NCBI GenBank assembly: GCA_963697385.1
Contig: CAVONU010000006.1
Location: 213,659 to 277,658, forward strand
DNA from: an uncultured Acidimicrobiales bacterium
GTDB taxonomy: Bacteria; Actinomycetota; Acidimicrobiia; Acidimicrobiales; CAWCAL01
Length of the DNA stretch: 64,000 bases
Direction of reading: 5' to 3'
The position numbers and the translations under genes are program-made. The notes under the pieces are model-generated. The model worked only from the letters and a program-made list of their open reading frames with translations. It was not told the DNA's origin and made no database searches. Shown here piece by piece: positions 18,084-62,947 of the stretch. The stretch's first letter is position 1. Each line of letters opens with the position of its first letter.

Positions 18084-20051
<1,968 letters not shown>

Positions 20052-20124
20052 TCATCTCGGCCGCCATACGGGGCCTGCCACGTTGATGAACAGGCGAGTC
20101 CTGGGGGAAGATCACGCGGGTGTC

Positions 20125-20133
20125 ATTCTACCA
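20125..20133 (-). promoter_or_regulatory. Candidate extended -10 element (TGGTAGAAT) of the gyrB promoter
   Basis: Reverse complement of attctacca. It lies ~85-115 nt upstream of the candidate gyrB starts in the spacer after the DUF721 gene. No convincing -35 element. Confidence 0.3.
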
Positions 20134-20178
20134 GTTCGAGGCCCCTCAGGGCGCCACCGCCGCTCGGCCGCCGACCAC

Positions 20179-20538
20179 CTACGCGGGCCGTTGGACGGTC
20201 ACATCGAGCCGGGTCGGTTGGTCGCTGTCCAACAGGGCCCGCACCGCGTCCAACAGGGAAGATTCCTGCCACGCGAGATGACGGACCAACGACGGATCTT
20301 CGGCGGCGACGAACAGGGTCTCGGCCTCGAGACGGCGGGGATGACACCGTTGCGCGATTTCGGGACCGACCAGCTCGGGCCAGGCATCGATGACCTGCAC
20401 CATCGACGACGCCGGCGCCGCGCCCAGGCGACGGAGCACCGCATCCAGACCGGCCTGCAGCGGTAGCGGTGGCCGACCCTGGTGCTCGCCGGGGAGGGGA
20501 TCAACCATCGGAGCGACACAACCCCGCGGACGTCGCAT
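20179..20538 (-). CDS. dciA: DUF721 domain protein (DciA-type, Rv0004-like)
   Basis: 119 aa between recF and gyrB, the conserved actinobacterial position. Sequence ..VIDAWPELVGPEIAQRCHPRRLEAETLFVAAEDP. The alternative start ATG 20508 would reduce the overlap with recF. Confidence 0.75.
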   Translation of the reverse strand: MRRPRGCVAPMVDPLPGEHQGRPPLPLQAGLDAVLRRLGAAPASSMVQVIDAWPELVGPEIAQRCHPRRLEAETLFVAAEDPSLVRHLAWQESSLLDAVRALLDSDQPTRLDVTVQRPA

Positions 20539-21586: not shown

Positions 21587-21596
21587 GGGCCGCCGC

Positions 21597-22688
21597 TCAG
21601 CTGACGCGAACCGGCATCAACAGGTAGAGGAAGTCCTCACGCTCCACCGATCGGAGCACGGCCGGCTTCAGGGCGTCCACGGTCTCCAGCGTGATCTCAT
21701 CACCCGGGGTGACCTCGATGCCGTCCATCAGGTATTCGGGATTGAAGGCCACGGTGAGCTCGCTGCCCTCGTACCCGGCGTCGATCTGTTCGTGCGCCTG
21801 TCCCACGTCCTGGGTGACCGCCAGCAGCTCGAGTCCACCCTCGCTCATGACCAGACGCACGGGAGTGGCTTCGCGGGCCAGCAGGCGGACGCGGCGGAGG
21901 GCATCGGCGATCGCGCTGCGCCCGACGGTGACGCGATTGGGTTGCGTGGTGGGGATCAGACCCTTGTAGTTCGGGAAATCGCCTTCGATCAGCCGGGTAC
22001 TGACCTGGATGTCATCCAGCTCGAACGTCGCGTCGCGCTCACCCAACCGAAGGGTCACGTCGCCGTCGTCCAGGAGGCGGGCCAACTCGCTCAGCGCCCG
22101 CGACGGCACCAGGACGCTCTGACCGGCCGACAACACACTGGCGCCCGGAAGATCTCGTACCGCCAGCCGGTAGGAGTCGGTGGCGACCAGGCGCAGACCG
22201 CCCTCCTCGGCGGTGAACAACACCCCGGTCAGGATCGGGCGGCTGTCATCGGACGAGGCGGCCGGAACCACCTGATGCAGCGCTTCGGCGAGCGCCGCGG
22301 CGTCGAAGGTGACGGCATCATCCGGCGGGTCGGCCAGAACGGGGAACTCCTCGGCGGGGATCAATCGAATCGAGAAATCCGATCGGCCCGAGGTGATCTC
22401 GGCCTGATCTTCGGTGGTGGTCACCTCGACGGCACCCTCGTCCAGGGCTCGCACGATGTCCGAGGCGAGCTTGGCCGGAACGACCACCGTCCCGTCCTCC
22501 TGGCCGGCGACGGTCACCGACACGACGATGGTGAGATCCAGATCACTTCCCGTGAGCTGCAGACGGTCGCCGGTGAGCTCGGCCCGGAGACCGGACAACA
22601 CCGGAAGAGAAGCTCCGCGGCTGGACACCGCTCGGCTCGCGGTGGCCAAAGCATCGGCAAGTACGTCACGCTCACAGCGGAACTTCAC
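21597..22688 (-). CDS. dnaN: DNA polymerase III subunit beta (sliding clamp)
   Basis: 363 aa with three-domain clamp pattern. GTG start with GAGGAG upstream. Lies downstream of dnaA. Confidence 0.97.
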   Translation of the reverse strand: MKFRCERDVLADALATASRAVSSRGASLPVLSGLRAELTGDRLQLTGSDLDLTIVVSVTVAGQEDGTVVVPAKLASDIVRALDEGAVEVTTTEDQAEITSGRSDFSIRLIPAEEFPVLADPPDDAVTFDAAALAEALHQVVPAASSDDSRPILTGVLFTAEEGGLRLVATDSYRLAVRDLPGASVLSAGQSVLVPSRALSELARLLDDGDVTLRLGERDATFELDDIQVSTRLIEGDFPNYKGLIPTTQPNRVTVGRSAIADALRRVRLLAREATPVRLVMSEGGLELLAVTQDVGQAHEQIDAGYEGSELTVAFNPEYLMDGIEVTPGDEITLETVDALKPAVLRSVEREDFLYLLMPVRVS

Positions 22689-22979
22689 AGTCTGCTTACT
22701 CCTCTTCCCTGTCTGATTGGGTAACCGTAGTCAGTAGTAGGTAGGTCCTGTGGGTTGTGGACGGACCGGCGCGATCGTTGTGGTACGAACGATGTCGCGT
22801 CCACCGGTCGATGCACAGCCATCAACATCTCACAATCGTGTGATTCGCGGGCCTGGGGGTGACGGGTACGTTGTCCAGCGCGGAGGCCCGGTTACCAACA
22901 CCCCTCACGTCGCTTATCCACCGTGCTGTCCACGACCCCGTCCACAGTGTGCGCCGTCGTGGGCCGGCCTCCGGTGTGG
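22689..22979. other. Candidate oriC (dnaA-dnaN spacer): AT-richer stretch plus DnaA-box cluster
   Basis: 291-bp spacer. Locally AT-rich 22689-22746 with TAG/GTAG repeats. DnaA-box-like 9-mers at 22756, 22871, 22914, 22926 and 22938. This is the usual actinobacterial oriC position. Confidence 0.5.
22914..22946 (+). promoter_or_regulatory. Three co-oriented DnaA-box-like 9-mers spaced exactly 12 bp apart
   Basis: TTATCCACC (22914), CTGTCCACG (22926), CCGTCCACA (22938). Each matches TT(A/G)TCCACA at 7-8 of 9 positions. Confidence 0.55.
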
Positions 22980-24446
22980 TCATGCCTGCTTGACTCGTTG
23001 GGTGAGCTCGGTCACCTGGTCGTAGGTCTGGCGTCGTTCGCCCAGTTGGTTGCGGATCTTCTCGCAGGCGTGGATGACCGTGGTGTGATCGCGACCGCCG
23101 AATTCCCGAGCGATGGCCGGATAACTGAGGTCGGTGAGCTCGCGTACGACGTACATGGCGGTCTGGCGGGCCGCGACCAGCGGCCGGCGTCGGCTCTTGC
23201 CGCAGATCTCCTCGACGCTGAAGTCGAACATCTCGGAGGTCTCGTCCAGGATGAGCTTCGGGGTGATGGGCCGGGGTTCGGCCGCCGACAGGACGTCGGA
23301 CAGGATCCGCGCCGCCAGCTGGGGCGTGGCCTGTTCCTGGTTGAGACTCGCGTAGGCGTTGACGCGGGTCAGCGCTCCCTCGAGCTCACGGATGTTGTTG
23401 GTGATGTGTTGGGCGATGTACTCGAGGACATCGTCGGGGAGGGAGTTGTTGTGGAGCTCGGCCTTCTTGCGGAGGATGGCGAGTCGGGTTTCCAGGTCGG
23501 GTGGCTGGATGTCGGTGATCAGGCCCATCTTGAACCGACTGCGCAAGCGGTCTTCGAGTGTCGGGATGGAGTCCGGCGGCCGGTCCGAGGACAGCACGAT
23601 CTGCCGGTTCGACTGATGCAGGGAATTGAAGGTGTGGAAGAACTCTTCCTGAAGCCCCTCTTTGCCTTCCATGAACTGGATGTCATCGACGAGCAGCACG
23701 TCGATCTCGCGATACTTGCGTTTGAAGTTGGGCTGGGTGTTGCGGCGGATCGATTCGACGAACTCGTTCAGGAAGGTCTCGGTCGAGAGGTACGAGACGC
23801 GGTAGGTGGGGTAGTTGTCGGAGACGTAGTTGGCGATGGCCTGGAGGAGATGGGTCTTGCCCAGCCCGGCGCTGCCGTAGATGAACAGGGGGTTGTAGGA
23901 CTTGGCCGGCGTCTCGGCCACCGACAGCGCTGCAGCGTGGGCGAACCGGTTCGATGCGCCCTGGACGAAGGACTCGAACGTGTACCGCGCGTCGGTGGGC
24001 GAACTGGACGGTCCCGATGCCGACGCCAGCACCGGAGAGGTGTCGCCACCGGAGAGCCGCCCGATGCCCGTGCTCTGGTGTTGCTCGCGTTGGTGAGGCG
24101 GTGACGTGGCGGCGCCGAGCGTCGGATCCGACGTCCGCGTGAGATCGATCGTCATTTCACCATCTGTTTCGACGATGATGGTCACCTCTTCGGCCGGTGA
24201 GGACACCTGACCCAGGGCGGAGCGAACCAGATCGACGTATCGGGTCTCGATTCGCTCCTTCATCAAGACGCTGGGTACCCCCAGGGTGAGGACGACATCC
24301 TCGACTCCCACGGCGGTGACGTGCTCGAACGTGCTGTGCCACACACCGTCGGGAACCTGGGGCCGAATCAGGTCCCGGCACGCGGTCCAGACCTGGCTTG
24401 CTTCTTGCACGCTGCGCCCTCCGGCTTCTTCCACAACACTCTCCAC
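22980..24446 (-). CDS. dnaA: Chromosomal replication initiator protein DnaA
   Basis: 488 aa. AAA+ Walker A GSAGLGKTHLL, box VII/sensor motifs, C-terminal DNA-binding domain (..HTTVIHACEKI..). GTG start. Confidence 0.98.
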   Translation of the reverse strand: MESVVEEAGGRSVQEASQVWTACRDLIRPQVPDGVWHSTFEHVTAVGVEDVVLTLGVPSVLMKERIETRYVDLVRSALGQVSSPAEEVTIIVETDGEMTIDLTRTSDPTLGAATSPPHQREQHQSTGIGRLSGGDTSPVLASASGPSSSPTDARYTFESFVQGASNRFAHAAALSVAETPAKSYNPLFIYGSAGLGKTHLLQAIANYVSDNYPTYRVSYLSTETFLNEFVESIRRNTQPNFKRKYREIDVLLVDDIQFMEGKEGLQEEFFHTFNSLHQSNRQIVLSSDRPPDSIPTLEDRLRSRFKMGLITDIQPPDLETRLAILRKKAELHNNSLPDDVLEYIAQHITNNIRELEGALTRVNAYASLNQEQATPQLAARILSDVLSAAEPRPITPKLILDETSEMFDFSVEEICGKSRRRPLVAARQTAMYVVRELTDLSYPAIAREFGGRDHTTVIHACEKIRNQLGERRQTYDQVTELTQRVKQA

Positions 24447-24449
24447 ATC

Positions 24450-24458
24450 TGTGGATAA
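24450..24458 (-). promoter_or_regulatory. Perfect consensus DnaA box TTATCCACA
   Basis: The plus strand reads TGTGGATAA. The box lies 3 nt upstream of the dnaA GTG (24446), consistent with autoregulation. Confidence 0.7.
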
Positions 24459-24787
24459 GGGGGGTCAACCACCGAAAGGCGTCGCAGGGACGAACCCTGC
24501 GAACGTTCGGTGCCCACCATGGAACCGTCCGATCCGATGAGACGGGACCAGGCAACCTAGCACTGCCGTTAGCATGACGCATCACGTTGGTGGTGGATGG
24601 TCCGGCACCAGCCGACTTTTGCGGATCGACTGATGTCGACCTATGGTCGCAGCAGATCTGTGCCCATCTATGGCTGTGCAATTCTCGGTTGCCATCGGGT
24701 GCACGGAGCGTTGTTCATCCGGTCAGCCGGCCGGGTCGTCCTGATGGTGGTGGCGCGGCACGAGTCGCCCACACGAGGAGTCTCCCG

Positions 24788-24922
24788 TTGAAGCGTACCT
24801 ACCAACCCAACGTCCGGAAGCGGTCCAAACGACACGGCTTCCGCAAACGGATGTCCTCCCGAGGCGGCCGGGCCGTGATTCGGTCTCGCCGTCGCAAGGG
24901 ACGACACCGGTTGTCGGCCTGA
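24788..24922 (+). CDS. rpmH: 50S ribosomal protein L34
   Basis: TTG start. Sequence (M)[43 protein letters not shown], 44 aa, the canonical L34 sequence. Confidence 0.92.
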
Positions 24923-25263
24923 TCTGGCGTCTTCGTGACCGTCGCACCTTCGGGCAACTCCATGCAGTCGGCCTCCGGGCCACGCGAGGGAGTGTGACCG
25001 CCATCTGGCTCCCCGGTGAAGCGCCGCCGCGCGTGGCGTTCGCGGTCGGGCGCCCGGTGGGCAACGCCGTCACCCGGAATCGGGTGAAACGCCGGCTTCG
25101 CGCCGCGGTGACAGCCGTCGACCTGGCCGCCCAACAGGGGTCCCACCCCGGGATCGGTGGCGGCGCATGGCTGTTCCGGGCCCGGCCCGATGCGGCCGAG
25201 CGGTCGTATGATCGGCTTCGAGACGATCTCGACCAGGCCGTGCAGGCGGCCCAGCGCCGATGA
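24919..25263 (+). CDS. rnpA: Ribonuclease P protein component
   Basis: RNR motif [12 protein letters not shown]. The track ORF starts at GTG 24994. An RnpA-like N-terminal segment ([15 protein letters not shown]..) is in frame upstream with no ATG/GTG/TTG. Start placed at CTG 24919, which overlaps the rpmH stop. 24994 is the alternative. Confidence 0.75.
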
Positions 25264-25535
25264 GTTCGGACACGATCACCCCGGCGCCACCGGCAGAGGA
25301 CTCCCGCCCCGGCCCGGTCGCCCGCGTGGTGATGGTCCTGATTCGTACCTACCAACACGCCCGCGCCGGCCGCCTGTCCCCGTGCCGGTTCCAACCCACC
25401 TGCTCGACCTACGCCCTCGAGGCCGTCCAGACCCACGGAGCGCTCCGCGGTGGGATCTTGGCCGTGCGTCGCATCGGGCGCTGCCACCCGTGGGGTGGCT
25501 CGGGATGGGACCCCGTTCCCGAACGGAGATCGTGA
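25260..25535 (+). CDS. yidD: Membrane protein insertion efficiency factor YidD
   Basis: 91 aa. ATGA overlap with rnpA. Motif [14 protein letters not shown]...[19 protein letters not shown]. Confidence 0.88.
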
Positions 25536-25541
25536 GAACCC

Positions 25542-26618
25542 ATGTTTGATGCCATCGCCACCGTCCTCGCCTGGTGTTACGACATCGTGCATTCGTACGC
25601 CGGCGCCATCGTCCTGCTGACCCTGGGCGTCATGGTCCTGTTGACCCCGTTGACCCTCAAGGGCACACGGTCGATGATCAAAATGCAGGAAATGCAACCG
25701 GAGTTGAAGAAACTTCAGGAGAAGTACAAGGACGACCGGGAAAAGCTCAACGAAGAGATGATGGCGTTCTACAAGGACAACGGCATCAATCCGGTGGCCG
25801 GGTGTCTCCCCACGTTGATTCAGATCCCGGTCTTCATCGTGCTCTATCAGGTGATCCGGGGGCTCACGAGTCGGGTCGGCGGCCTGGGCTCGGAGACCGG
25901 TGCTGCCATGGTCGGCCAGGAGTTCCCGGCCAAGCCCCCCTTCGATCCCAAGTACATCAATCACGACACCCCGCTGTATCAGGATCTCTCGGGAACCAAC
26001 GAGATGTTGTCCTGGGGCCTCGACCTCTCCATCACGCCGGCGCAGGCGCTGTCCGAAGGGGTCGTCACCGCGCTGCCGTACCTGGCGCTGATCGTGGTGG
26101 TGGCCGTCTCCAGTTGGTACCAGCAGAAGCAGATCCAGGGCCGGCGCAAGCCGGGCCAGGCCGAGGTCAACCCGCAGCAGCAGGCCATCATGAAGGTGCT
26201 GCCCTTCATGCTGCCGGTGATCTCGTTCTCGATGCCCACGGCGCTGGTGATCTACTTCGTCTTCTCCAACCTCTACCGGGTGGCCCAGCAGTACTGGATC
26301 ACCCGCACCCTCTACGGCGACGAGGGTGAGCTGCACGATGTCGCCGAAGCGCACGCCGCCGCCGCCAAGGCGGGGAAGACCGGGGCCAAGGGAGGCACCG
26401 GCAAGGGTGGGGCGAAGAAGAGCGGTACCGGCGGCAAGAAGTCGGGAGGCTCGGGTGGCGGCCGTGCCGCGGCCAAGAGCGGCACCGCCACCAAGACCCG
26501 GGCCTCGGCTCGGAGCAAGAACGGAACGTCCGGATCTTCCGGAGGACGCAAGAAGCCGCCGCCCGCTGCGGCGGCACCGACGCCGCGTCCGCGGAAGAAG
26601 AAACGAAAGAGGAATTGA
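25542..26618 (+). CDS. yidC: Membrane protein insertase YidC (short Gram-positive type) with long basic C-terminal tail
   Basis: 358 aa. Motifs ..MQEMQPELKKLQEKYKDDREKLNEEMMAFYKDNGINP..GCLPTLIQIPVF.. The Lys/Gly-rich tail ends KKKRKRN. Confidence 0.95.
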   Translation: MFDAIATVLAWCYDIVHSYAGAIVLLTLGVMVLLTPLTLKGTRSMIKMQEMQPELKKLQEKYKDDREKLNEEMMAFYKDNGINPVAGCLPTLIQIPVFIVLYQVIRGLTSRVGGLGSETGAAMVGQEFPAKPPFDPKYINHDTPLYQDLSGTNEMLSWGLDLSITPAQALSEGVVTALPYLALIVVVAVSSWYQQKQIQGRRKPGQAEVNPQQQAIMKVLPFMLPVISFSMPTALVIYFVFSNLYRVAQQYWITRTLYGDEGELHDVAEAHAAAAKAGKTGAKGGTGKGGAKKSGTGGKKSGGSGGGRAAAKSGTATKTRASARSKNGTSGSSGGRKKPPPAAAAPTPRPRKKKRKRN

Positions 26619-26624
26619 TTCACT

Positions 26625-27539
26625 GTGGAATGGGTAGTTACCACCGGTAAGACGGTCGAGCAGGCCAAGGAACGCGCCCTCGACCAACTCGGGATCGCCG
26701 CCGACGAGGCCGAGTTCGAGACGATCACGAGCCCGAAGAAGGGCTTGTTCGGCATGGTCCGGGGTGAGGCACAGATTCGTGCCCGCGTGCGTCCGGTCCA
26801 GCCTCGAGCGAAGAAGGAGGCCCGGCGAGGGCGCGACGGTGGTGGCAACAAGCGCAGTGGCGGCAACAAGCGCGGCGGCGGTCAGGGCCGAGCCAAGTCC
26901 GGCGGCGGCGGCGGGGGTCGCCAGGGCGGATCGAACAAGAAGTCCGAGTCGCGTGCCGAGGGGGAGGAGCCCCGAGCGACGGTGCCGGCCAAGAAGAAGC
27001 CGTCCGGTCGGAAGGATGCGCCCGCCAGGAACAAGCCCGAGAAGGATCAGGAGGCCATAGTGAACATGAGTGTTCAAGAACAGTCCGAGGTGGTCGAGGA
27101 ATTCCTGGGCGGTCTGGTCGAGGCGTTCGGCTTCTCGGCCGACGTGTCGACGACCGAGATCGAAGAGGACACGGTGCTGGTCCGCGTGGATGGTGACGGG
27201 TTGGGACTGATGGTCGGGCGGAAGGGCCGAACGCTGTCGGCGATTCACGAGATCAGTCGTGCCGTCCTGCACCGCGAGGCCGACGGCCCGCTGCGGGGTC
27301 GGATCCGGCTGGACGTAGCCGGCTATCGCGAGCGGCGCCAGATCGCCCTCGAAGGGTTCGTTCGTGAGGCCGCGGCCAAGGTCATCGAGGACGGGGTGGA
27401 CCTGGCGCTCGAGCCGATGTCCGCTCCCGATCGGAAGATCGTGCACGACACCGCGGCTGAGATCGAGGGAATCCGCACCCTGTCCGAGGGCGAGGAACCG
27501 AATCGTCGCGTGGTCCTGGTCGTCGAGGGCGACGACTGA
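26625..27539 (+). CDS. jag: Jag/KhpB-type RNA-binding protein (Jag_N, KH, R3H) with internal Arg/Gly/Lys-rich disordered linker
   Basis: 304 aa. GTG start. The N-terminal Jag domain is TGKTVEQAKERALDQLG. C-terminal KH/R3H region (..IGRKGRTLSAI.., ..DRKIVHDT..). Conserved position after yidC. Confidence 0.9.
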   Translation: MEWVVTTGKTVEQAKERALDQLGIAADEAEFETITSPKKGLFGMVRGEAQIRARVRPVQPRAKKEARRGRDGGGNKRSGGNKRGGGQGRAKSGGGGGGRQGGSNKKSESRAEGEEPRATVPAKKKPSGRKDAPARNKPEKDQEAIVNMSVQEQSEVVEEFLGGLVEAFGFSADVSTTEIEEDTVLVRVDGDGLGLMVGRKGRTLSAIHEISRAVLHREADGPLRGRIRLDVAGYRERRQIALEGFVREAAAKVIEDGVDLALEPMSAPDRKIVHDTAAEIEGIRTLSEGEEPNRRVVLVVEGDD

Positions 27540-28219
27540 GCGCAGCCGGTCTCCTGCTCGAGGAGGCGGCCCGGCGTGGCCTCCTCGGTGGTCGGGTGGC
27601 GGACCACCGTACCCACTCCGAGGCGTTCGCTGGGGTGGTCCGGAGCCTCATCGGCGCCGGCCGGCTCGCCGGGGCGGCGCAGGCGGGTGACGACGCACCC
27701 GGCGGGGCATCGTCCCCACGACCGGAACTGGCCGACATCGGCTCGGGTGCGGGGGTGCCCGGACTGATCTTGGCCGAACTGCTCCCGGAGGTCGCGGTGA
27801 CCCTGATCGATCGTCGCGCCGGTCGGGCGGCCTGGCTGGAGGAAGCCGCGGCGGCGCTGGCCCGCGAGGGGATCGGAATTCGGGTGCGATGCGGCGACGT
27901 GTACGACCTGGCCCGGGGCGAGGACCGAGGTCGATACGATTTGGTCACGGCTCGAGCGTTCGGGAGCCCGGTCGTCACGGCGGAGCTGGGCGGTGCCCTG
28001 CTCAGGACGGGGGGTCTCCTGGTGGTCAGTGAGCCCCCGGATCAGCCCGACCGCTGGAACGACGTCGATCTCGAGGGGCTCGGATTGACCGACAGCGGTC
28101 CCGCCGGGGCCATCCCGCGGGTAGGGGCGGAAGCGACGCGGCGGGCCCGATTTCGGGTCCTGGTTCGGCGGGCCCCGCTGGCCCCCCATCGGCCTCGTCG
28201 GACACCGCGTCCGGCGTAA
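27536..28219 (+). CDS. rsmG: 16S rRNA (guanine527-N7)-methyltransferase RsmG (GidB)
   Basis: SAM motif DIGSGAGVPGL and ..VTARAF.. The track ORF starts at GTG 27596. An in-frame upstream segment (LLLEEAARRGLLGG) resembles RsmG N-termini but has no canonical start. CTG 27536 overlaps the jag stop (CTGA). 27596 is the alternative start. Confidence 0.8.
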   Translation: MSAAGLLLEEAARRGLLGGRVADHRTHSEAFAGVVRSLIGAGRLAGAAQAGDDAPGGASSPRPELADIGSGAGVPGLILAELLPEVAVTLIDRRAGRAAWLEEAAAALAREGIGIRVRCGDVYDLARGEDRGRYDLVTARAFGSPVVTAELGGALLRTGGLLVVSEPPDQPDRWNDVDLEGLGLTDSGPAGAIPRVGAEATRRARFRVLVRRAPLAPHRPRRTPRPA

Positions 28220-28246
28220 CGGCGGACGACGCCCGGGCGGGGCCCA

Positions 28247-28262
28247 GGTTTCACGTGAAACG
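28247..28262. other. parS centromere-like site 1
   Basis: GGTTTCACGTGAAACG. The inner 14 bp are identical to the consensus tGTTTCACGTGAAACa. Confidence 0.85.
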
Positions 28263-28317
28263 GTGGCCGTCCCCGTCGGACGGGTACGCGCGCCGCCTCC
28301 GGATCCGGCGTCACGCC

Positions 28318-28333
28318 CGTTTCACGTGAAACC
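28318..28333. other. parS centromere-like site 2
   Basis: CGTTTCACGTGAAACC. With flanks it is the reverse complement of site 1 over 20 bp. It ends 12 nt upstream of the annotated parA start. Confidence 0.85.
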
Positions 28334-28345
28334 TGGCGCTCGGCC

Positions 28346-29185
28346 TTGACCGCCGGCCGGCCGAGCGACGAGGATAGCGGTCGCTTGTGGCCCGACCAGA
28401 GGAGCCGGACATTGATCGCTCGCCCCCTGCCGCGCGTCATCGCGGTGGCGAATCAGAAAGGTGGGGTCGGAAAGACCACCACGTCGGTCAACCTCGGGGC
28501 GGCGCTGGCCGACCTCGAGTTCCGGACCCTGGTGGTGGATCTCGACCCCCAGGGGAATGCCAGCACCGGACTCGGGATCAGCCCCCGCAATATCGAGCAC
28601 ACCATGTACGACGTCATCATCCACGGCGTCGCGATGGAAGATTGCCTCGAGGCCACCGCGGTGAAGCACCTGTTCGTGGCCCCGGCGAATCTCGATCTGG
28701 CCGGGGCCGAGATCGAGCTGGTGCCGGCCTTCAGTCGAGAGATGAAACTGAAGCAGGCCATCGACGAGGTGCGCGACGACTTCGACTACATCATCATCGA
28801 TTGTCCCCCGTCTCTGGGCTTGCTGACGGTGAACGCGCTCGCCGCGGCCTCGGAGGTGATGGTGCCGATCCAGTGCGAGTACTACGCCTTGGAGGGACTG
28901 GGCCAGCTCTTGCGCAACGTGGACCTGGTCCAGCGCAATCTGAACACCGATCTCGAGGTCAGTGCCATCGTGCTTGTCATGTACGACGCTCGGACGAAGT
29001 TGGCCGAGCACGTGGCGCTCGAGGTGCGGCAGCACTTCGGTGACACCGTGTGCCGGAATGTGATCCCGCGTTCGGTTCGCCTGTCCGAGGCACCGTCGTT
29101 CGGCCAACCCATCACCGTGTTCGATCCATCGTCTCGGGGGGCCATCGCCTACCGCGAACTGGCTCGGGAGGTAAGTGGAAAATGA
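28346..29185 (+). CDS. parA: Chromosome partitioning ATPase ParA (Soj)
   Basis: Deviant Walker A NQKGGVGKTTT and ..VDLDPQGN.. motif. The start is uncertain: TTG 28346, or an in-frame TTG further downstream. Confidence 0.95.
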   Translation: MTAGRPSDEDSGRLWPDQRSRTLIARPLPRVIAVANQKGGVGKTTTSVNLGAALADLEFRTLVVDLDPQGNASTGLGISPRNIEHTMYDVIIHGVAMEDCLEATAVKHLFVAPANLDLAGAEIELVPAFSREMKLKQAIDEVRDDFDYIIIDCPPSLGLLTVNALAAASEVMVPIQCEYYALEGLGQLLRNVDLVQRNLNTDLEVSAIVLVMYDARTKLAEHVALEVRQHFGDTVCRNVIPRSVRLSEAPSFGQPITVFDPSSRGAIAYRELAREVSGK

Positions 29186-30078
29186 CCGACGCACGAAAGG
29201 GCGGTCTGGGACGAGGCCTGGGCGCGTTGATCCCGACCGACGCCACCAGCGGGACCGCGTCGGAGGGGGCGCTGCGTGACGTTCCCATCGACGAGATCGA
29301 AGCCAACCGGTTCCAGCCCCGCGAGCGGTTCGAGGAGGCCTCGCTGATGGCGCTGGCGGACTCGATCCGCGAGCTCGGCGTGTTGCAACCGGTGCTGGTG
29401 CGCGAGGCGGATGAGGGGTACGAACTGATCGCAGGGGAGCGGCGATGGCGGGCCGCGAAACGGGCCGGGCTCACCACCATCCCCGCGCTGGTGCGCACCG
29501 CCGACGATCTGGCCTCGCTGGAACAAGCGGTGGTGGAGAACCTGCACCGCGCCGATCTGAATCCGTTGGAGGAGGCCGCTGCCTACCAACAACTGCTCGA
29601 GGACTTCGAGCTGACGCAGACCACCCTGGCCACCCGGGTGGGAAAGAGTCGGTCCGCGATCAGCAACCTGCTCCGGTTGTTCCAGCTGCCCGGATCGATC
29701 CAGAAGTTGGTGATGGACGGTCGCTTGGCCGAGGGTCACGCTCGAGCGCTCCTGGGGACCCCCGATCGTCAACAGCAGGAACGACTGGCGCAGCGCGCCG
29801 TTCGTCAGGGGCTGAGCGTGCGGGAGGTGGAGGAGGCGGTCCGTGCCCTCGACGACGACGAGGCCGGCGATGCGCCGGCGCCGAAGCCGGCGGCGCTCCG
29901 ACCGCCGGGTCTGTTGGAGTTGGAGAACCTGTTGTCCGACCACCTGGCCACCAAGGTGACCGTCACGATGGGCACGCGGCGGGGCCGGGTGCAGATCGAT
30001 TTTGCCGATCTCTCCGACCTGGAGCGCATCTACCGGGCCATGACCGAACCGGCCTCCGACGAAGACGGGCCCGGCTGA
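29182..30078 (+). CDS. parB: Chromosome partitioning protein ParB (Spo0J)
   Basis: ATG 29182 overlaps the parA stop (ATGA). Motifs GLGRGLGALIP, ..QPRE.F.., LIAGERRWRAA (CTP-binding GERR box) and an HTH. Confidence 0.95.
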   Translation: MTDARKGGLGRGLGALIPTDATSGTASEGALRDVPIDEIEANRFQPRERFEEASLMALADSIRELGVLQPVLVREADEGYELIAGERRWRAAKRAGLTTIPALVRTADDLASLEQAVVENLHRADLNPLEEAAAYQQLLEDFELTQTTLATRVGKSRSAISNLLRLFQLPGSIQKLVMDGRLAEGHARALLGTPDRQQQERLAQRAVRQGLSVREVEEAVRALDDDEAGDAPAPKPAALRPPGLLELENLLSDHLATKVTVTMGTRRGRVQIDFADLSDLERIYRAMTEPASDEDGPG

Positions 30079-31708: not shown

Positions 31709-32677
31709 TCAGACCGGTGCGTGCACGTTGGCTTCGAGCCAGCGCTCGGCGTCGATGGCCGCCATACATCCCGACCCGGCCGAGGTGACGGCCTGCCGAT
31801 AGATGTCGTCCTGGACGTCGCCGCACACGAACACGCCGTCGACGTTGCTGGCCGATCGACCCGGTTCGGTGAGCAGATATCCGCTGTCCTTCATGTCAAG
31901 GTGACCCTTGAACAGGTCGGTATTGGGGCGGTGGCCGATCGCCACGAAGAGCCCGGACACCGGCAGCGTCTCGGTGTGGTCGGTGTGGACGTCGCGGACG
32001 ACGATCCCCTCGACCGAGGTGTCACCCACGATGGCATCGACCACCGCGTTCCAGCGGAAGATGATCTTCGGGTTGGCCATGGCCCGGTCCTGCATGATCT
32101 TCGAGGCGCGCAGTTCATCGCGCCGGTGGATCAGGGTGACCGACCGGGCGAACTTGGTGAGGAAGGTGGCCTCCTCGAGGGCCGAATCGCCCCCGCCCAC
32201 CACGGCGATGTCCTGGTCCCGGAAGAAGAACCCGTCACAGGTGGCACAGGTCGAGACGCCGTGTCCGATCAGCTCCTGCTCCTTGTCGATTCCCAGCATC
32301 AGGGAACGGGCACCGGTCGAGACGATCACCGCGTCCGCCGTGTAGGAGGGCTCCGGCGCGTCGGGATCGCCCACCCACAGCGCGAACGGACGCTGGGAGA
32401 AGTCGACGCGGGTGACCTTGTCGGTCAGGAAGTCGGTACCGAACCGCGCCGCCTGCTCGCGGAACTTGGCCATGAGCTCGGGGCCCATCACCCCATCGGG
32501 AAATCCGGGGTAGTTCTCGACGTCGGTGGTCAGCATGAGCTGCCCCCCGGGCTGGTCGCTGGTGGAGGACGGCGCACCCTCGATCACCAGCGGCTCGAGG
32601 TTGGCGCGGGCGGCGTAGATGGCGGCCGTGAGCCCGGCCGGACCCGATCCGATGATCACGACAGTGCGGGATGACAC
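31709..32677 (-). CDS. trxB: Thioredoxin-disulfide reductase
   Basis: Motifs GSGPAG, the redox CATCDG, and GGGDSA. Start set at GTG 32677, which has AAGGAG 6 nt upstream. The track ORF extends to 32713. Confidence 0.95.
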   Translation of the reverse strand: MSSRTVVIIGSGPAGLTAAIYAARANLEPLVIEGAPSSTSDQPGGQLMLTTDVENYPGFPDGVMGPELMAKFREQAARFGTDFLTDKVTRVDFSQRPFALWVGDPDAPEPSYTADAVIVSTGARSLMLGIDKEQELIGHGVSTCATCDGFFFRDQDIAVVGGGDSALEEATFLTKFARSVTLIHRRDELRASKIMQDRAMANPKIIFRWNAVVDAIVGDTSVEGIVVRDVHTDHTETLPVSGLFVAIGHRPNTDLFKGHLDMKDSGYLLTEPGRSASNVDGVFVCGDVQDDIYRQAVTSAGSGCMAAIDAERWLEANVHAPV

Positions 32678-32708
32678 GGTGAACTCCTTGATAGCGATCT
32701 CGTTCTGC

Positions 32709-32735
32709 AACACCCCGTGATCGACGGGCTATTCC
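32709..32735 (-). promoter_or_regulatory. SigR/SigH-type ECF promoter motif GGAAT-N19-GTT upstream of trxB
   Basis: The minus strand reads GGAATagcccgtcgatcacggggtGTT. The -35 element overlaps the stop of the upstream small membrane gene. The predicted TSS lies ~25 nt before GTG 32677. Confidence 0.4.
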
Positions 32736-44534: not shown

Positions 44535-45304
44535 CCATCGCCCTCGACCGCGCCGCGCTCCTCGAGCCCCGGAAGGTCGACGAGTTCCGGTCGGATGTGG
44601 GCGTCTCCGGCGCCGTCGACGAGATGGACCCGTCCGTGGTACCGGCCCTGGAGCTCAGTCCCGAGATTCAACGGTTCCCCATGGTGGTCCGGGGTCGCAA
44701 GATGACCGGCTACGGGGTCGCCAAGCGGGCGCTCGATCTCCTCGCCGTGCTCGTGATGGCCCCCGTGGCGTTGGTCGTCGTCGGCGTGGCCATCGCCGTC
44801 AACAAGCTCCAGGACCGGTCGGCGCCAGCGTTCCACGCGCAGGAACGCACCGGTGCCGGGGGCCGGCGCTTCCGCTTGTTCAAGATCCGCACCATGGTGG
44901 CCAACGCGGAAGCGATGAAGGCCGAACTGATGCACCTCAACACGCGGACCTACCCCGACTTCAAGGTCGACGACGATCCGCGGATCACCGGGATCGGGCG
45001 GATCCTTCGGGCCACCAGCCTGGACGAGCTCCCGCAGCTGTGGAACGTGCTTCGGGGCGACATGACCCTGGTCGGCCCCCGGCCCACGACCCTCCCGCCC
45101 GAGGCGTACGCGTCGTGGCAGACCGAGCGGTTCGAGGTGCGGCCGGGACTGACGGGGCTGTGGCAGCTCGACGGGCGCGATTCCCCATCGTTCGTCGAAC
45201 GGGCCCGGCTGGACATCGCCTACGTGCGGCGCCGATCGCTGCGGCTCGACCTCTACATTCTCCTGAGGACCATCCCAGCCGTCCTCGGAGGACGAGGTGA
45301 ATGA
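44531..45304 (+). CDS. Polyprenyl-phosphate sugar-1-phosphate transferase (WbaP/EpsL-type bacterial sugar transferase)
   Basis: GTGA overlap with the upstream gene. Motifs KRALDLL.., FKIRTM, DPRIT..GR.LR..SLDELPQL.NVL.G.M.LVGPRP. Confidence 0.85.
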   Translation: MTIALDRAALLEPRKVDEFRSDVGVSGAVDEMDPSVVPALELSPEIQRFPMVVRGRKMTGYGVAKRALDLLAVLVMAPVALVVVGVAIAVNKLQDRSAPAFHAQERTGAGGRRFRLFKIRTMVANAEAMKAELMHLNTRTYPDFKVDDDPRITGIGRILRATSLDELPQLWNVLRGDMTLVGPRPTTLPPEAYASWQTERFEVRPGLTGLWQLDGRDSPSFVERARLDIAYVRRRSLRLDLYILLRTIPAVLGGRGE

Positions 45305-46559
45305 CGAACGACCTCGGATCGCATACCTGGTGTCCCGGTTTCCTCACTTCACCGAGACCTTCATCGTCCGGGAGATCCACGAGGTCCTGAGCGCCGGTCC
45401 CGAGGTGTCGATCTACGCGCTCCGGGATTTCGAACAAGATGCGGTGCAACCGGCGGCACGAGCACTGCTTCCCCGGGTGACCTGGGGCAACCGGCTCCCC
45501 GTGAGCGAGATGATCTGGGCCATCGCCGGATGGCTGGTCCGCCGACCGATCCGCACCCTCGGTGTGTGGGCGTCGGCCATCGCCGGGAACCTTCGGTCAC
45601 CGAAGTTCCTGGGTCGGACCATCGTGGCGCTGCCCGCCGCCATGACGTTCGCCCGGCGGATGGAACGCGACGGCGTCCAGCACATCCACGCCCACTGGGC
45701 GACCCACCCGGCGCTGGCCGCGTGGGCGATCCGCCGCCTGACGGGGATTCCCTACTCGGTGACCGTGCACGCGCACGACCTCTACGTCGAGCGGCCCATG
45801 ATCGAGCGGAAGCTGGGCGAGGCCGAGACCGTGGTCACCATCTCGGAGTTCAACCGGCGGATGCTCACCGAGATCCATCCGCCCCTGGCGGGAACGCTCC
45901 ACGTGATCCCCTGCGGGGTCCGGCTCGACGACTTCGCTTCCGGTGCACGAGCCGCCGGCCGGGTGGTCTGCGTCGGGAGCCTCCAGGAGTACAAGGGTCA
46001 GCGCTATCTGATCGAGGCGGCGCGGATGCTCCGCGACGAAGGTCGGGAGCTGTCGGTGGTGCTCGTGGGAGACGGCGAACTCCGGCCCGAGTTGGAAGCT
46101 CAGGTGGCCGGTCTCGGTCTCGGTTCGGTCGTGGAGTTCGCCGGCCACCAACCGACCGAGCGCATCACCGAGCTCCTGGCCACCGCCACCGTGGTCGTTC
46201 AGCCCAGCGTCGTGACGGCCAGCGGGAAGATGGAGGGGGTGCCCGTGGCGCTGATGGAGGCCCTGGCGAGCGAGGCCGCGGTGGTGGCGACCGACATCTC
46301 GGGGATCTCCGAGCTGGTGATCGACGGCGAGACCGGGCGGCTGGTGCCACCGCGGGACGCCGCTGCGCTCGCCGAGGCAATGGCCGGTCTGCTCGACGAC
46401 GAGGCGCTGCGCGGCCGGCTGGGAGCCGCGGGGCGCGGCCACGTCGCGTCCTCCTACGATCTCCAGCACAACGCGGCCCGGCTCGTCCGATTGCTCACAG
46501 CGAGTCCGATCCCTGCCGACGGAGCGAACGAGGCCGTGATCGAAGGAGCTACCTCGTGA
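45297..46559 (+). CDS. Glycosyltransferase family 4
   Basis: 420 aa. Motifs IAYLVSRFP..TETF and the C-terminal EGVPVALMEALA (E-x7-E). Overlaps the upstream gene by 8 nt. Confidence 0.85.
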   Translation: MNDERPRIAYLVSRFPHFTETFIVREIHEVLSAGPEVSIYALRDFEQDAVQPAARALLPRVTWGNRLPVSEMIWAIAGWLVRRPIRTLGVWASAIAGNLRSPKFLGRTIVALPAAMTFARRMERDGVQHIHAHWATHPALAAWAIRRLTGIPYSVTVHAHDLYVERPMIERKLGEAETVVTISEFNRRMLTEIHPPLAGTLHVIPCGVRLDDFASGARAAGRVVCVGSLQEYKGQRYLIEAARMLRDEGRELSVVLVGDGELRPELEAQVAGLGLGSVVEFAGHQPTERITELLATATVVVQPSVVTASGKMEGVPVALMEALASEAAVVATDISGISELVIDGETGRLVPPRDAAALAEAMAGLLDDEALRGRLGAAGRGHVASSYDLQHNAARLVRLLTASPIPADGANEAVIEGATS

Positions 46560-59591: not shown

Positions 59592-60298
59592 GCCCGGTCT
59601 TGGAACTGCGGGATCTGCGCGCCGGATACGAACGGGTGGCCGTCGTGCGCGATCTGTCGCTGGAGGTGGCGGCCGGCGAGGTCGTGGCGCTCCTGGGACC
59701 GAGTGGCGCCGGAAAGACCACCACGCTGCTCACGGTGTCGCAGCTCCTCGACCCCTTGGCCGGCGAGGTGATGTTCCTCGGATCGTCGATCGTCGGAAAA
59801 CGGCCGAGTGCCGTGGCTCGCCTCGGACTCGCCCATGTTCCTGAGGAACGGGGTGTCTTCGTCGGGCTCACCACGCGGGAGAACCTCACCGTCGGCGTGC
59901 GCGGACGCAAGACCGATCTCGATCCGATCGTCGACCTCTTTCCGGCGCTGGGTCGGCTGATGGACCGGCAGGCCGGATTGCTCTCGGGCGGCGAACAACA
60001 GATGCTCGCCATCGGTCGTGCCCTCGTGCAGCAACCGCTGCTGCTGATGGTGGACGAGTTGTCGCTCGGACTGGCTCCGGTGATCGTCGACCGGCTTTTA
60101 CCGGTGCTGCACCGAGTGGCACGCGAACGGGACACGGCGGTCCTCATCGTGGAGCAACAGGTCCAGGCGGCGCTGCGCCACGCGGACCGCGCCTACGTGC
60201 TCAATCACGGCGAGTTGGTGGTCAGCGGCACGGCGGCCGACTTGGCGGCTGACGATCGGCTTCTCGCGTCCAGCTATCTGGGAGACCTCGACGGCTGA
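59588..60298 (+). CDS. ABC transporter ATP-binding protein, LivF/UrtE type
   Basis: GTGA overlap with the upstream gene. Walker A GPSGAGKTT, signature LSGGEQQML, Walker B MVDELSLGLAP. Confidence 0.9.
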   Translation: MSPVLELRDLRAGYERVAVVRDLSLEVAAGEVVALLGPSGAGKTTTLLTVSQLLDPLAGEVMFLGSSIVGKRPSAVARLGLAHVPEERGVFVGLTTRENLTVGVRGRKTDLDPIVDLFPALGRLMDRQAGLLSGGEQQMLAIGRALVQQPLLLMVDELSLGLAPVIVDRLLPVLHRVARERDTAVLIVEQQVQAALRHADRAYVLNHGELVVSGTAADLAADDRLLASSYLGDLDG

Positions 60299-60308
60299 GA
60301 CCGGCGCG

Positions 60309-60791
60309 TCAGATCACCAGCGGATCGTCGGGGAGGACGCCGAGGACCTTCGTGAGCCGTCCGAGACCGAGGAAACTGGCGACACACACCATCAGGTCGA
60401 GGATCTCCGCATCGGAGAACTCGTCCTTCATCCGACCGAGGAGATCGTCGTCGATACGGTGATGCTCGAGAGCGAAGCGCTCGGCGAACTCGATGGCCAG
60501 CTTCTCACGGACGGTGAAATCGTCTCGATCGCGCCACTCGTGGACGTGGCGGTAGTGCTCTTCGCTCTCGGGGAGCTGCATCAACGATGCAGCGCGGGTA
60601 TCCAGTCAGACGGGGCAGTCGTTGATCTGGGCGATACGCATGCGGGCCATCTCGCGTTCGTTGACCGGAAGTTCGCTGCGCTCGTACACCATGGCCGAGA
60701 ACTTCGCCGCCGCGTGGCCCATGGCGGGGTTGATGGACCACACCCGGATGAGCTCGTCGCCTTCACCGTCCGGCACGTCGAGGGTTGCCAC
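60309..60791 (-). CDS. Carboxymuconolactone decarboxylase/AhpD-like protein with one in-frame TGA (60606-60608): candidate selenoprotein (C-P-V-U), or a pseudogene
   Basis: GTG 60791 (GAGGAG 7 nt upstream) to the stop at 60309 is one frame of 161 codons with a single internal TGA, in ..RIAQINDCPV*LDTRAAS.. An 8-bp hairpin starts 12 nt downstream of the TGA. The track shows the two halves as 60606.. and 60309..60584. Confidence 0.55.
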
Positions 60792-60805
60792 GGTCGATCT
60801 CCTCT

Positions 60806-62242
60806 TCACGATGTTGTGCCGAGTGTAGAAGGAACTCGGCCGGCCGATCGCGTGTGCCACAGACGGATGGCGGCGTACGCACGCCAGGGCTGCCAGGCGT
60901 CGAAGGCGGCGTCGACCTCGGCCGACGACGGTCGGCGCCCCGCCTGCTCCAGCGCGGCCCGGAGCGCGATGTCGCCGGACGGAAACGCGTTGCGATCGCC
61001 CAGGGAGCGCATGGCGATGGAGGACGCGGTCCAGGGTCCGATCCCCGGCAGCGCGAGCAGTTGATGCACGATCTCGTCGGCCGGTCGCCGGTCGTCCATC
61101 ACGAGGTCCTCGTTGGCAACCGCCCGGCTGAGCGCGAGGATCGAGCGGGCGCGCGCCAGCGGCATGCCGAACGAACCGGGATCTGCGCCGGCCAGCACCT
61201 CGGGCGCGGGCCAGACCCGGCGGACGGTCCCGTCCGGTGCCGTCACGGTCGTCCCGTGGGATTCGACCAGCCGCCCCGCCAACGTCGTGGCGGCGGTCAC
61301 GGTCACCTGCTGACCGAGGATCGCTCGCACGGCGATCTCGAAGGGATCCCAGGCGCCGGGGACACGCATCCCCGGGTGGGCCCGGACCGACGGAGCCAGG
61401 ATCGGGTCCGAGCCGAGGTCGTGGTCGACCGCCTCGATGGGCGCATCGAGGTCGAAGAGCCGTCGAGCCCGTTCGACGAGGTGATGCAGCGAGCGGTAGC
61501 TGGGGAGGAGCACCCGCATGCGGACGTCGGGCGAGTCGGGCAACGCTTCGACGTGCACGATGCCCGGGGCCCCGTGGGTCGTGATCGTGCGCTGGTAGGA
61601 CGTGGCGGTCACGATCTCCACGCCGGGGACCGCTCGAGCGCCGAGGAAGTCGAAGAGCGCGCCGAACGCCATCGGCGCGCGCCCGGGCAGGCGCAGGACC
61701 AGGGCGCCGTCGGCCGCCGGTTCCGACCGGACGGGGGCGCGGCGTCGCATGTCGGTCGGGGTGCGACGGAAGACCGATCGGACGACCCGGTTCATCTGGC
61801 GGACGCTGTTGAACCCCGCCGCGAAGGCGACGTCGCAGACGGGCAGCTCCGATTCGTCGAGCAGCCGCTTCGCCAGGTGGGCTCGGCGCGAGCGAGCGAC
61901 CTGATCGGGGCTCGCCCCGACGTGCTGATGGAAGAGCCGCCGCAGATGTCGATCGCTGACCCCGAGCTCCCGGGCGAGCGCATCGGTGGGTGCCGCGTCG
62001 AGCGCTCCGGCTGCGATCATGCGGAGCGCTCGGCACACCAGGTCCGGCGCGTCGTCGCCACCGGTCGGTTGCGGCGCGTGCTCAGGTCGGCAGCGACGGC
62101 ATGGCCGATAGCCGTCGGCCTCGGCCGCTGCGGGGTAGACGTAGTCCCGCACGTTGCGAGCGAGCGGCGACGCCGGGCAGCCGTCACGGCAGTAGATCCC
62201 GGTGGTGACCACGGCGTGGAAACCGGCAGCGGACTGTTCCAT
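60806..62242 (-). CDS. alkA: Ada-AlkA fusion: Ada Zn methyl-acceptor domain, AraC-type HTH, and DNA-3-methyladenine glycosylase II (HhH-GPD)
   Basis: 478 aa. Four-Cys Ada motif (IYCRDGCP...YRPCRRCRP), an HTH (..VAFAAGFNSVRQMNRV..), and C-terminal AlkA-like LPGIGPWTA. Confidence 0.9.
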   Translation of the reverse strand: MEQSAAGFHAVVTTGIYCRDGCPASPLARNVRDYVYPAAAEADGYRPCRRCRPEHAPQPTGGDDAPDLVCRALRMIAAGALDAAPTDALARELGVSDRHLRRLFHQHVGASPDQVARSRRAHLAKRLLDESELPVCDVAFAAGFNSVRQMNRVVRSVFRRTPTDMRRRAPVRSEPAADGALVLRLPGRAPMAFGALFDFLGARAVPGVEIVTATSYQRTITTHGAPGIVHVEALPDSPDVRMRVLLPSYRSLHHLVERARRLFDLDAPIEAVDHDLGSDPILAPSVRAHPGMRVPGAWDPFEIAVRAILGQQVTVTAATTLAGRLVESHGTTVTAPDGTVRRVWPAPEVLAGADPGSFGMPLARARSILALSRAVANEDLVMDDRRPADEIVHQLLALPGIGPWTASSIAMRSLGDRNAFPSGDIALRAALEQAGRRPSSAEVDAAFDAWQPWRAYAAIRLWHTRSAGRVPSTLGTTS

Positions 62243-62297
62243 GGCTGAGTTCTAACCCGTCGTACTGCGTCGCGCTGGTCAGATCCGGACAGACCGG

Positions 62298-62309
62298 CGG
62301 ACCGGTCCG
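62298..62309. promoter_or_regulatory. 12-bp perfect palindrome in the divergent ada-alkA / ogt spacer (candidate operator)
   Basis: CGGACCGGTCCG, flanked by GATCCGG direct repeats (62282 and 62310). Confidence 0.25.
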
Positions 62310-62389
62310 GATCCGGCCAGCGGCGTGCGGATGGATCGGTCAGGATGGCGGTGGTTCCGAAGAGACCGACAGCCCAAGGAGCGACGCCG

Positions 62390-62947
62390 ATGCAGCAACT
62401 CGAGGTCACGACGATGGCGAGCCCCGTGGGCCCACTCGTGGTGGGAGCCCGATCGGGTCGTGTGTGCCTCGTGGCGTTCGGCTCGGATGCCGACACCGTC
62501 ATCAGCCGTCTGGAACGCCATGTCGGGTCGATGGAACGGGTCGAGCATCCCGACCCTGGCGGGGCGGTATCGGTCCTGGACCGGTACTTCGCCGGCGATA
62601 TCGAGGCGATCGACGACCTCGAACTCGATTCCATCGGGACCGAGTTCCAGCGGTCGGTCTGGAGCGCGCTGCGGGCCGTCCCCGCCGGTCGGACGACGTC
62701 GTATCGGGAGATCGCGGCGGCGATCGACACACCCGGGGCGGTGCGGGCCGTCGGATCGGCCAACGGTGCCAACCCGATCGTCGTGATCGTCCCGTGTCAC
62801 CGGGTGGTGCGGAGCGACGGTTCGCTGGGCGGCTACGGGGGAGGTCTGGACCGGAAGCGGTGGCTCCTGGCCCACGAGGATGCGGGTGCCTCCAGCCTGT
62901 GGCCTCCCGCACCCGTCGAGGAGTCGACGGCGGCGATCCACCGCTAG
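62390..62947 (+). CDS. ogt: Methylated-DNA--protein-cysteine methyltransferase
   Basis: ATG 62390 with AAGGAG 8 nt upstream. Active site IVVPCHRVV. Motifs ..TEFQRSVWSAL..VPAGRTTSY.EIA. Confidence 0.92.
   Translation: MQQLEVTTMASPVGPLVVGARSGRVCLVAFGSDADTVISRLERHVGSMERVEHPDPGGAVSVLDRYFAGDIEAIDDLELDSIGTEFQRSVWSALRAVPAGRTTSYREIAAAIDTPGAVRAVGSANGANPIVVIVPCHRVVRSDGSLGGYGGGLDRKRWLLAHEDAGASSLWPPAPVEESTAAIHR

Follow-up and report, generated by a model that had tools for sequence, protein, structure and literature searches.

Is the lone TGA inside an AhpD-like gene of an uncultured Acidimicrobiales bacterium a stop codon, or is it translated, and if so as which residue? The gene lies in a 64-kb stretch of DNA (called the window below, meaning the whole stretch analysed), and its minus-strand frame from 60791 to 60309 is open throughout by direct reading and translation, except for one internal TGA at 60608-60606. 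An earlier note, made from the letters of the window, had regarded the locus as a candidate selenoprotein rather than a pseudogene, and this proposal is borne out by the Cys column of the homologues, the conserved TGA, the selection on the gene and a hairpin kept in register. The frame very probably encodes a 160-residue thiol-selenol oxidoreductase of the AhpD/carboxymuconolactone decarboxylase (CMD) type with the motif C59-P-V-U62, in which the UGA is recoded. With equally high confidence we infer that the inserted residue is selenocysteine (Sec), which would replace the second Cys of the C-x-x-C motif of the family.

The pairing of Sec with Cys in homologues, the conservation of the TGA, the selection downstream of it, the conservation of the hairpin and the fold are all directly supported, and binding of the hairpin by SelB would be expected. 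According to the proposed mechanism, the hairpin located 12 nt downstream of the UGA would act as a bacterial selenocysteine insertion sequence (SECIS) and recruit SelB.GTP.Sec-tRNA(Sec) with the UGA in the A site, while the invariant UGA-C context, a weak terminator, would favour recoding. The product would then alternate between two forms, selenol/thiol and a selenenylsulfide made with Cys59, with Glu47 serving in an AhpD-type relay.

The TGA column, its conservation and the fold

A total of 317 relatives were found by database search, and alignments of 23 and then 49 full-length homologues (39-55% identity) were made from them. The TGA column holds Cys in 49/49 of these homologues, within the motif N-x-C-x-x-C, and the columns of C59 and of the Cys at residue 62 are both invariant. 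The TGA had been placed at the second Cys of the CxxC motif, giving C-P-V-U, and this is exactly the column in question.

The four closest clusters among the relatives (86-98% identity) are all 90-aa C-terminal fragments, which was the first sign of a shared stop. The contigs that encode these fragments have the same 61-aa open reading frame (ORF), 24-nt gap, 90-aa ORF and neighbourhood, and 23 of the 24 variants of the N-terminal piece in the database clusters are exactly 61 aa long. Assemblies from ENA, Logan, JGI and GTDB supplied 12 distinct orthologous DNA sequences that have the TGA, at protein identities of 76-98%, and the codon, the C that follows it and the reading frame are invariant among them, with zero indels and zero extra stops. 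Alignment of the homologues at this column had been proposed as a check, and it came out for the selenoprotein, since the TGA is kept down to the most divergent of these orthologues. The window locus itself is identical to contig_19182 of ENA ERZ25039514, a contig of 1.18 Mb. The features of the gene and of its immediate surroundings are as follows; orthologous loci carry L numbers.

60309..60791, minus strand: complete gene of the probable selenoprotein, 160 codons (159 standard and 1 Sec), one AhpD/CMD-like domain
60799..60804, minus strand: Shine-Dalgarno-like GAGGAG, 7 nt before the start, read from the sequence
60789..60791, minus strand: GTG start codon; ATG there in L005, L006, L008-L010, L016 and L018 by alignment
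60615..60617, minus strand: TGC codon of Cys59, with which the C-P-V-U redox motif begins; column invariant across 50 sequences
60606..60608, minus strand: in-frame TGA, very probably read as selenocysteine, residue 62; next base always C (UGA-C); invariant in 12 distinct orthologous DNA sequences
60594..60605, minus strand: spacer of 12 nt from UGA to hairpin, codons L-D-T-R; variation at third codon positions only in the alignment
60575..60593, minus strand: candidate bacterial SECIS hairpin; 5' arm 60593-60586, loop GUU 60585-60583, 3' arm 60582-60575
60309-60311, minus strand: terminal stop, read from the sequence
60806..62242, minus strand: ada-alkA fusion gene directly upstream, same strand; Pfam Ada_Zn_binding, HTH_18 and AlkA_N, and tblastn synteny

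The ada-alkA gene ends with its stop TGA at 60808-60806, 14 nt ahead of the start. All coordinates of the earlier note, namely those of the start, GAGGAG, the ada-alkA stop, the TGA, the terminal stop and the hairpin, agree with the sequence to the base. The start is supported by the N-termini of homologues, where MARIDIPDG aligns with VATLDVPDG of the window protein, and the translation around the TGA reads ...IAQINDCPV*LDTRAASLMQL...

Four loci were obtained by a scan of species genomes: L014 and L015 (93-94%) and L016 (76%) have the TGA, and L017 (54%, Acidimicrobiaceae) has Cys. Three more came from a scan of metagenomes, L018 (90%) with the TGA and two further Cys forms. Among the Sec forms identity never falls below 76%, and the closest Cys form stands at about 55%. 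A homology search seeded with L016, the most divergent Sec form, returned no additional Sec-type lineage, and the Sec clade is therefore small and nested among Cys forms. The Sec form would descend from a Cys form, the change having taken place inside a single clade of uncultured soil Acidimicrobiales.

The metagenome-assembled genome MFD03804.bin.2.67 has the block of ogt, ada-alkA, selenoprotein gene, ATP-binding cassette (ABC) genes and dnaB twice, as L014 on CAWCAL010000002.1 and as L015 on CAWCAL010000011.1. The two blocks differ in their divergence from the window, and the bin looks like two related genomes mixed. The dnaB of L015 was recovered by tblastn in four pieces, a sign of possible frameshifts or indel errors.

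With Cys put in place of the stop, the protein matches the Pfam family CMD PF02627 with 36.3 bits against a cut-off of 23 (E = 5.7e-9) over profile positions 1-83 of 84, and the match spans the TGA. At curated thresholds the protein belongs to PF02627 and to no other family. The best NCBIfam match, TIGR01926 'peroxidase-related enzyme', covers residues 27-156 and reaches 51.4 bits, below its cut-off of 81.8, and the AhpD core domain TIGR00778 reaches 19.5 bits, below its cut-off of 27.8. AhpD-like proteins in the PDB that are matched by the family profile include PA0269, Atu0492, Mlr4105 and D. radiodurans AhpD. An AlphaFold model of a 51%-identical Cys homologue (P0007, motif NDCPVCL) served as a proxy for the window protein and has a predicted local distance difference test (pLDDT) score of 91.7 and a predicted template modelling (pTM) score of 0.87. 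The model consists of one domain built entirely of helices, and its CxxC sits where helix 43-57 meets helix 60-64. Foldseek gave template modelling (TM) scores of 0.77-0.87 between the P0007 model and 2gmy, 2ijc, 2o4d and 2prr, and the CMD-fold debrominase Bmp8 is also among its relatives. The two pieces on either side of the TGA thus form one domain, with the TGA in a central position. That they together make up one AhpD/CMD-like domain had been supposed from their size and look, and the Pfam score, the P0007 model and the Cys homologues of 159-168 aa, which align end to end, agree with it.

The proton relay of AhpD consists of Glu118, Cys130, His132, Cys133 and His137 in M. tuberculosis, and of Glu36, Cys48, Tyr50, Cys51 and His55 in PA0269 (PMC3141380). 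The equivalent residues of the window protein are Glu47, Cys59, Val61, Sec62 and Arg66, so that the spacing E-x11-C-x-x-C is retained. The canonical pattern E-x11-C-x-x-C-x3-H is broken at its last position, where the +4 residue is Arg66 instead of His, and the x2 residue is Val. Arg66 (60594-60596, minus strand) is invariant in the subfamily, in Cys and Sec forms alike (50 sequences), at the place where AhpD and PA0269 have the relay His. In its active-site chemistry the subfamily may depart from canonical AhpD.

Redox chemistry would be expected from the conserved CxxC/U. With regard to a 4-carboxymuconolactone decarboxylase (PcaC) proper, which would sit in a beta-ketoadipate pathway context, no pca genes were found near the selenoprotein gene; its neighbours are ada-alkA, ogt and ABC ATPases. 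By its family, the protein would be a thiol/selenol oxidoreductase.

The hairpin and the inserted residue

The hairpin of the window is GCUGCAUC-GUU-GAUGCAGC at 60593-60575, a perfect stem of 8 bp that begins 12 nt after the TGA. Counted with the U of the UGA as 1, the stem occupies +16 to +23 and +27 to +34, and the loop is G24-U25-U26. Bacterial SECIS elements are recognised by their position after the UGA and by a small G-containing apical loop (PMC1088965), and the hairpin, as it had been described from the window sequence, fits on both points. Perfect 8-bp stems with loops of 3-10 nt occur 98 times in the 128,000 strand positions of the window, and the chance that such a stem starts 8-16 nt after a given TGA is P ~0.007.

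The hairpin is the local minimum-free-energy fold, in the same register, in 12/12 of the TGA-type sequences. The Cys-type loci L017 and L019-L022 (5/5) fold into unrelated structures at this site. Pairs were counted in nine distinct rows: 95.8% of the stem cells are paired, compared with 24-64% when the 3' partner is slid. Five stem pairs never vary and the GUU loop is invariant. The spacer is free to vary at synonymous sites, and the loop and most synonymous sites of the stem are fixed. At pair 19-31, five rows have G-C and four have U.G. Either single substitution on the way from one to the other would break the pair, and the switch comes at the price of two amino acid replacements (A to S and Q to E). 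The covariation score was reached by 8/500 shuffles. The expectation that the hairpin would co-vary among TGA copies was thus upheld, with the register kept, one double change that preserves its pair, and Cys-type homologues that do not have the hairpin. By published criteria (PMC1088965), a new bacterial selenoprotein should have Cys in two or more homologues, the TGA conserved in two or more different sequences, and a downstream stem-loop whose small apical loop contains G; judged by sequence, all of these are present at the locus.

Several observations weigh against the Sec reading. The 73-nt segment folds no better than its shuffles (z = -0.49), and its stability is unexceptional in GC-rich sequence; of the folding suggested for this region of the minus strand, the formation of the hairpin was thus confirmed and an exceptional stability was not. 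Single stem mismatches occur in individual lineages, at pair 3 in L004 and L015 and at pair 6 in L014. The covariation rests on one pair, probably changed in a single evolutionary event, and is supportive, not conclusive. The NCBIfam models of AhpD-like proteins that carry '(seleno)protein' in their names all score below threshold: NF053654 (YciW-related) 42.8 against 310 bits, NF041238 (AhpD_rel_CFYUT) 14.2 against 175 bits, and NF041047 (GSU3128) 13.2 against 110 bits. No Rfam family matched the hairpin, at E <= 10 at the locus or at gathering thresholds on the whole window; only a tRNA-Ile and a chance Actino-pnp were reported. Rfam has poor coverage of bacterial SECIS elements, and little can be read from this null result.

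The remaining points on this side concern the decoding machinery. ARAGORN, run on the 64-kb window and on six long loci, found no tRNA-Sec, and no selA, selB or selD was found among the ~45 ORFs of the window by Pfam or in the gene tables of the flanks (~100 kb). Less than 5% of a genome is covered by these searches, and the result is therefore not evidence of absence. A second TGA-interrupted coding frame was sought in two scans of the window and the loci; none turned up, and the scans picked up only the ordinary same-frame gene junctions rpsF/ssb and gyrB/gyrA. In the class Acidimicrobiia, Sec machinery with ~5 selenoproteins per genome was reported from a different order, the Actinomarinales (bioRxiv 10.64898/2026.04.03.716425), and Sec machinery is present in about 40% of 244 mycobacterial genomes (PMC13449736), which makes the trait plausible in the phylum.

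ARAGORN also called a tRNA-Ser(GGA) at 46058-46142 (+), inside a group-1 glycosyltransferase ORF at 45297-46559 (Pfam domain aa 223-380). It was not reported by Rfam at gathering threshold and is probably a false positive.

The failure to find Sec machinery in the window and its flanks fits the possibility that the UGA is read through with a residue other than Sec. A near-cognate tRNA could insert Cys or Trp at the leaky UGA-C context, or a SelB-like factor could bring in Cys on a selC-like tRNA charged with it, and the role of the hairpin would be to stimulate read-through. The evidence of translation past the TGA, given below, fits this possibility equally well, and so does the invariant UGA-C context. 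It would be odd, however, to retain inefficient decoding, or Trp at a catalytic Cys, over a synonymous divergence (dS) of ~1 when one base change to TGC or TGT gives Cys. Moreover, the position of the hairpin and its small G-containing loop match SelB-dependent elements, and CxxU is a documented Sec motif of the superfamily. We consider insertion of another residue quite unlikely, and Sec remains the preferred assignment.

Selection and translation past the TGA

Ratios of nonsynonymous to synonymous substitution (dN/dS) were calculated pairwise by the Nei-Gojobori method for the pieces before and after the TGA, the latter comprising codons 63-160. Before the TGA the ratio is 0.03-0.12 at dS of 0.28-1.03, and after it 0.05-0.25 at dS of 0.42-0.98. 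The sequence downstream of the TGA is by this measure under purifying selection in the same frame, and the further decay that would have spoken for a dead copy is not seen.

The 7 codons between the TGA and the TTG, the first possible restart (an ATG comes next), contain five variable columns. Four of them are third-position and synonymous (Asp, Thr, Arg and Ala), and the fifth is the Ala/Ser change of the covarying stem pair. This stretch encodes L-D-T-R including the invariant R66, and it is common to the Cys homologues P0024 and P0026 (CPVCLDTR).

These codons bear on the possibility of a split gene, in which the TGA would be a true stop and products of 61 aa and ~90 aa, the second restarted at the TTG or ATG (60584/60581), would assemble into one CMD-like domain. 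Public gene calls do show, in every assembly, one ORF of 61 aa and one of 90 aa, a TTG or ATG stands 8-9 codons past the TGA, and TGA is a common stop in GC-rich genomes, so that its conservation by itself is not decisive. The two ORFs are, on the other hand, always in the same frame across a 24-nt gap without any indel, and the gap, in which nearly all changes are synonymous, encodes conserved residues of the family. The internal ATG has no Shine-Dalgarno-like sequence ahead of it when the sequence is read, and it is ACG in L014. The break would also remove the second catalytic Cys and fall in the middle of a compact helical domain, and no Cys-type relative is split. Selection, the synonymous gap, the ACG in L014 and the missing internal Shine-Dalgarno-like sequence together strongly disfavour the split gene, which we regard as very unlikely.

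The same evidence excludes a pseudogene, and the chance that a nonsense mutation from TGC or TGT, or a sequencing or assembly artefact, has hit a dead CMD gene is negligible: one base separates TGA from either Cys codon and the closest database entries are fragments, but the same TGA stands in all 12 sequences from independent projects and sequencing platforms, dN/dS is 0.03-0.25 over both halves, there are no frameshifts or extra stops, and between the window and L016 the gene is better conserved (76% identity) than its neighbour ada-alkA (59%). The simple nonsense mutation that the earlier note kept as its alternative is ruled out by these TGA copies and by the selection after the TGA.

The recoded reading also accounts for the public annotation, where gene callers have cut the gene in two because its in-frame TGA would be used for Sec. 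NCBI lists the two pieces as different proteins, MFA9563499.1 ('hypothetical protein') and MFA9563500.1 ('CMD family protein'), and only a 91-aa C-terminal piece appears in this frame in the ORF listing of the window. Long overlapping ORFs in wrong frames surround the locus, e.g. 60459-61064 (+) and 60606-62036 (-), and among them is a 476-aa ORF that ends at the same TGA in another listing register. Such ORFs are artefacts of GC-rich sequence with low third-position GC, and not genes.

A concrete correction of annotation follows for public records that show two unrelated fragments, and the soil Acidimicrobiales clade is marked as a probable user of selenocysteine. For the class Acidimicrobiia, the sole report of Sec machinery found is the 2026 preprint on the marine order Actinomarinales (bioRxiv 10.64898/2026.04.03.716425). 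The gene would be a compact example of a recent Cys-to-Sec conversion, with a minimal SECIS (8 bp and a triloop) that visibly constrains the overlapping protein sequence. It may also serve as a training case for the prediction of selenoproteins in GC-rich genomes, in which stops are most often UGA. Knowledge of Sec decoding, or of the protein families that use Sec, is not changed by it, as the motif, the mechanism and the kind of protein are established.

Genomic context and known systems

At every Sec-type locus (the window, L001, L006, L008, L011 and L014-L016) the gene follows ada-alkA in the same orientation at a distance of 14-84 nt, with ogt divergent; in the window, the region of this adjacency is 60806-62947. 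L016 keeps the adjacency to ada-alkA though the downstream pair of ABC ATPase genes is missing and the other flank is rearranged. The Cys-type loci L017, L021 and L022 have other neighbours and are not adjacent to ada-alkA. A scan of 60200-62500 found no promoter-like or terminator-like site, and ada-alkA and the selenoprotein gene are probably co-transcribed.

The adjacency to ada-alkA and ogt suggests a possible functional link to the response to alkylation damage. A stronger version, in which the selenoprotein would be a dedicated part of the adaptive response to alkylation damage rather than a peroxidase adaptor, and the switch from Cys to Sec would have been selected for that chemistry, seems to us unlikely. 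The selenolate of an AhpD-type site, as a very strong nucleophile, could in that case intercept or reductively remove alkyl or halo-alkyl groups; the debrominase Bmp8 is a structural relative.

No AhpC partner gene was found nearby. The window contains a thioredoxin-reductase-like pyridine nucleotide-disulphide oxidoreductase of 334 aa at 31709-32713 (-), and a second Pyr_redox_2/Pyr_redox_dim protein of 445 aa is encoded just past the end of the window (L011 1852-3189). Either of them could be the reductant of the AhpD-like protein, although neither adjoins it. As to the rest of the window, the chromosomal origin block was found at 15477-30078: its minus strand encodes gyrA, gyrB, recF, dnaN and dnaA, and its plus strand yidC, jag, rsmG, parA and parB. 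The selenoprotein gene lies about 36 kb from dnaA. The window also has trxB, glycosyltransferase genes and the rpsF-dnaB genes.

Selenoproteins of the AhpD/CMD-like superfamily with the same CxxU motif are indeed on record, as the earlier note had stated. An 'AhpD-like protein' of COG2128 was represented by 27 Sargasso Sea sequences, and under the name 'AhpD-like 1' the same family, with 299 sequences, was the fourth most abundant in the Global Ocean Sampling (GOS) data. A 'CMD domain-containing protein', equal to 'AhpD-like 2' (PF02627), is a CxxU selenoprotein more abundant in non-marine samples, and NF041238 and NF041047 are also catalogued as CxxU selenoproteins of the superfamily (PMC1088965, PMC2398784, PMC13188914). 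The 'AhpD-like' CxxU selenoprotein is listed under TIGR01926 in a 2026 review.

The window protein shares with the marine AhpD-like selenoproteins the superfamily, the C-x-x-U motif with Sec for the second Cys, Cys homologues that are far more numerous, and a stem-loop with a small G-containing apical loop just past the UGA. JGI labels the Cys homologues of the window protein 'alkylhydroperoxidase family enzyme', which we take to be the product name of COG2128. In contrast to the marine proteins, the window protein scores below the TIGR01926 cut-off and is thus outside that subfamily by curated threshold. It comes from soil Acidimicrobiales instead of marine plankton, has an invariant Arg for the relay His at +4, and its gene is linked to ada-alkA. 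It resembles the CMD selenoprotein 'AhpD-like 2' of GOS in PF02627 and CxxU, a likeness by domain and motif within a broad family and not that of an orthologous group.

Among AhpD-like structures, PA0269 (2ijc, 2o4d, 7xw1) and Atu0492 (2gmy) have the all-helical AhpD fold, to which the proxy model P0007 is related by the TM scores given above. The counterparts of Glu47, Cys59 and Sec62 are Glu36, Cys48 and Cys51 in PA0269 and Glu118, Cys130 and Cys133 in M. tuberculosis AhpD. PA0269, Atu0492 and M. tuberculosis AhpD (1knc, 1gu9) use Cys where the window protein would have Sec. Moreover, His55 of PA0269 and His137 of M. tuberculosis AhpD are replaced by Arg66, and the His or Tyr of the x position by Val61. 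The similarity to M. tuberculosis AhpD itself is weak (Foldseek E about 0.5).

The SECIS of E. coli fdhF is a hairpin within the coding sequence with an essential loop G23-U24 and a UGA-C context. The window hairpin is like it in lying in coding sequence 11-12 nt past the UGA, in having G-U in a small loop ~23-25 nt from the UGA, and in its UGA-C context. It differs in being shorter and simpler, with 8 bp, a 3-nt loop and no bulged U, and there is no sequence similarity between the two.

The gene is best described, from its sequence, as an unannotated member, possibly of a new subfamily, of an already known kind of selenoprotein, because only the PF02627 threshold is passed and the relay His is absent, but the motif, the logic of Sec in place of Cys and the type of hairpin are the same.

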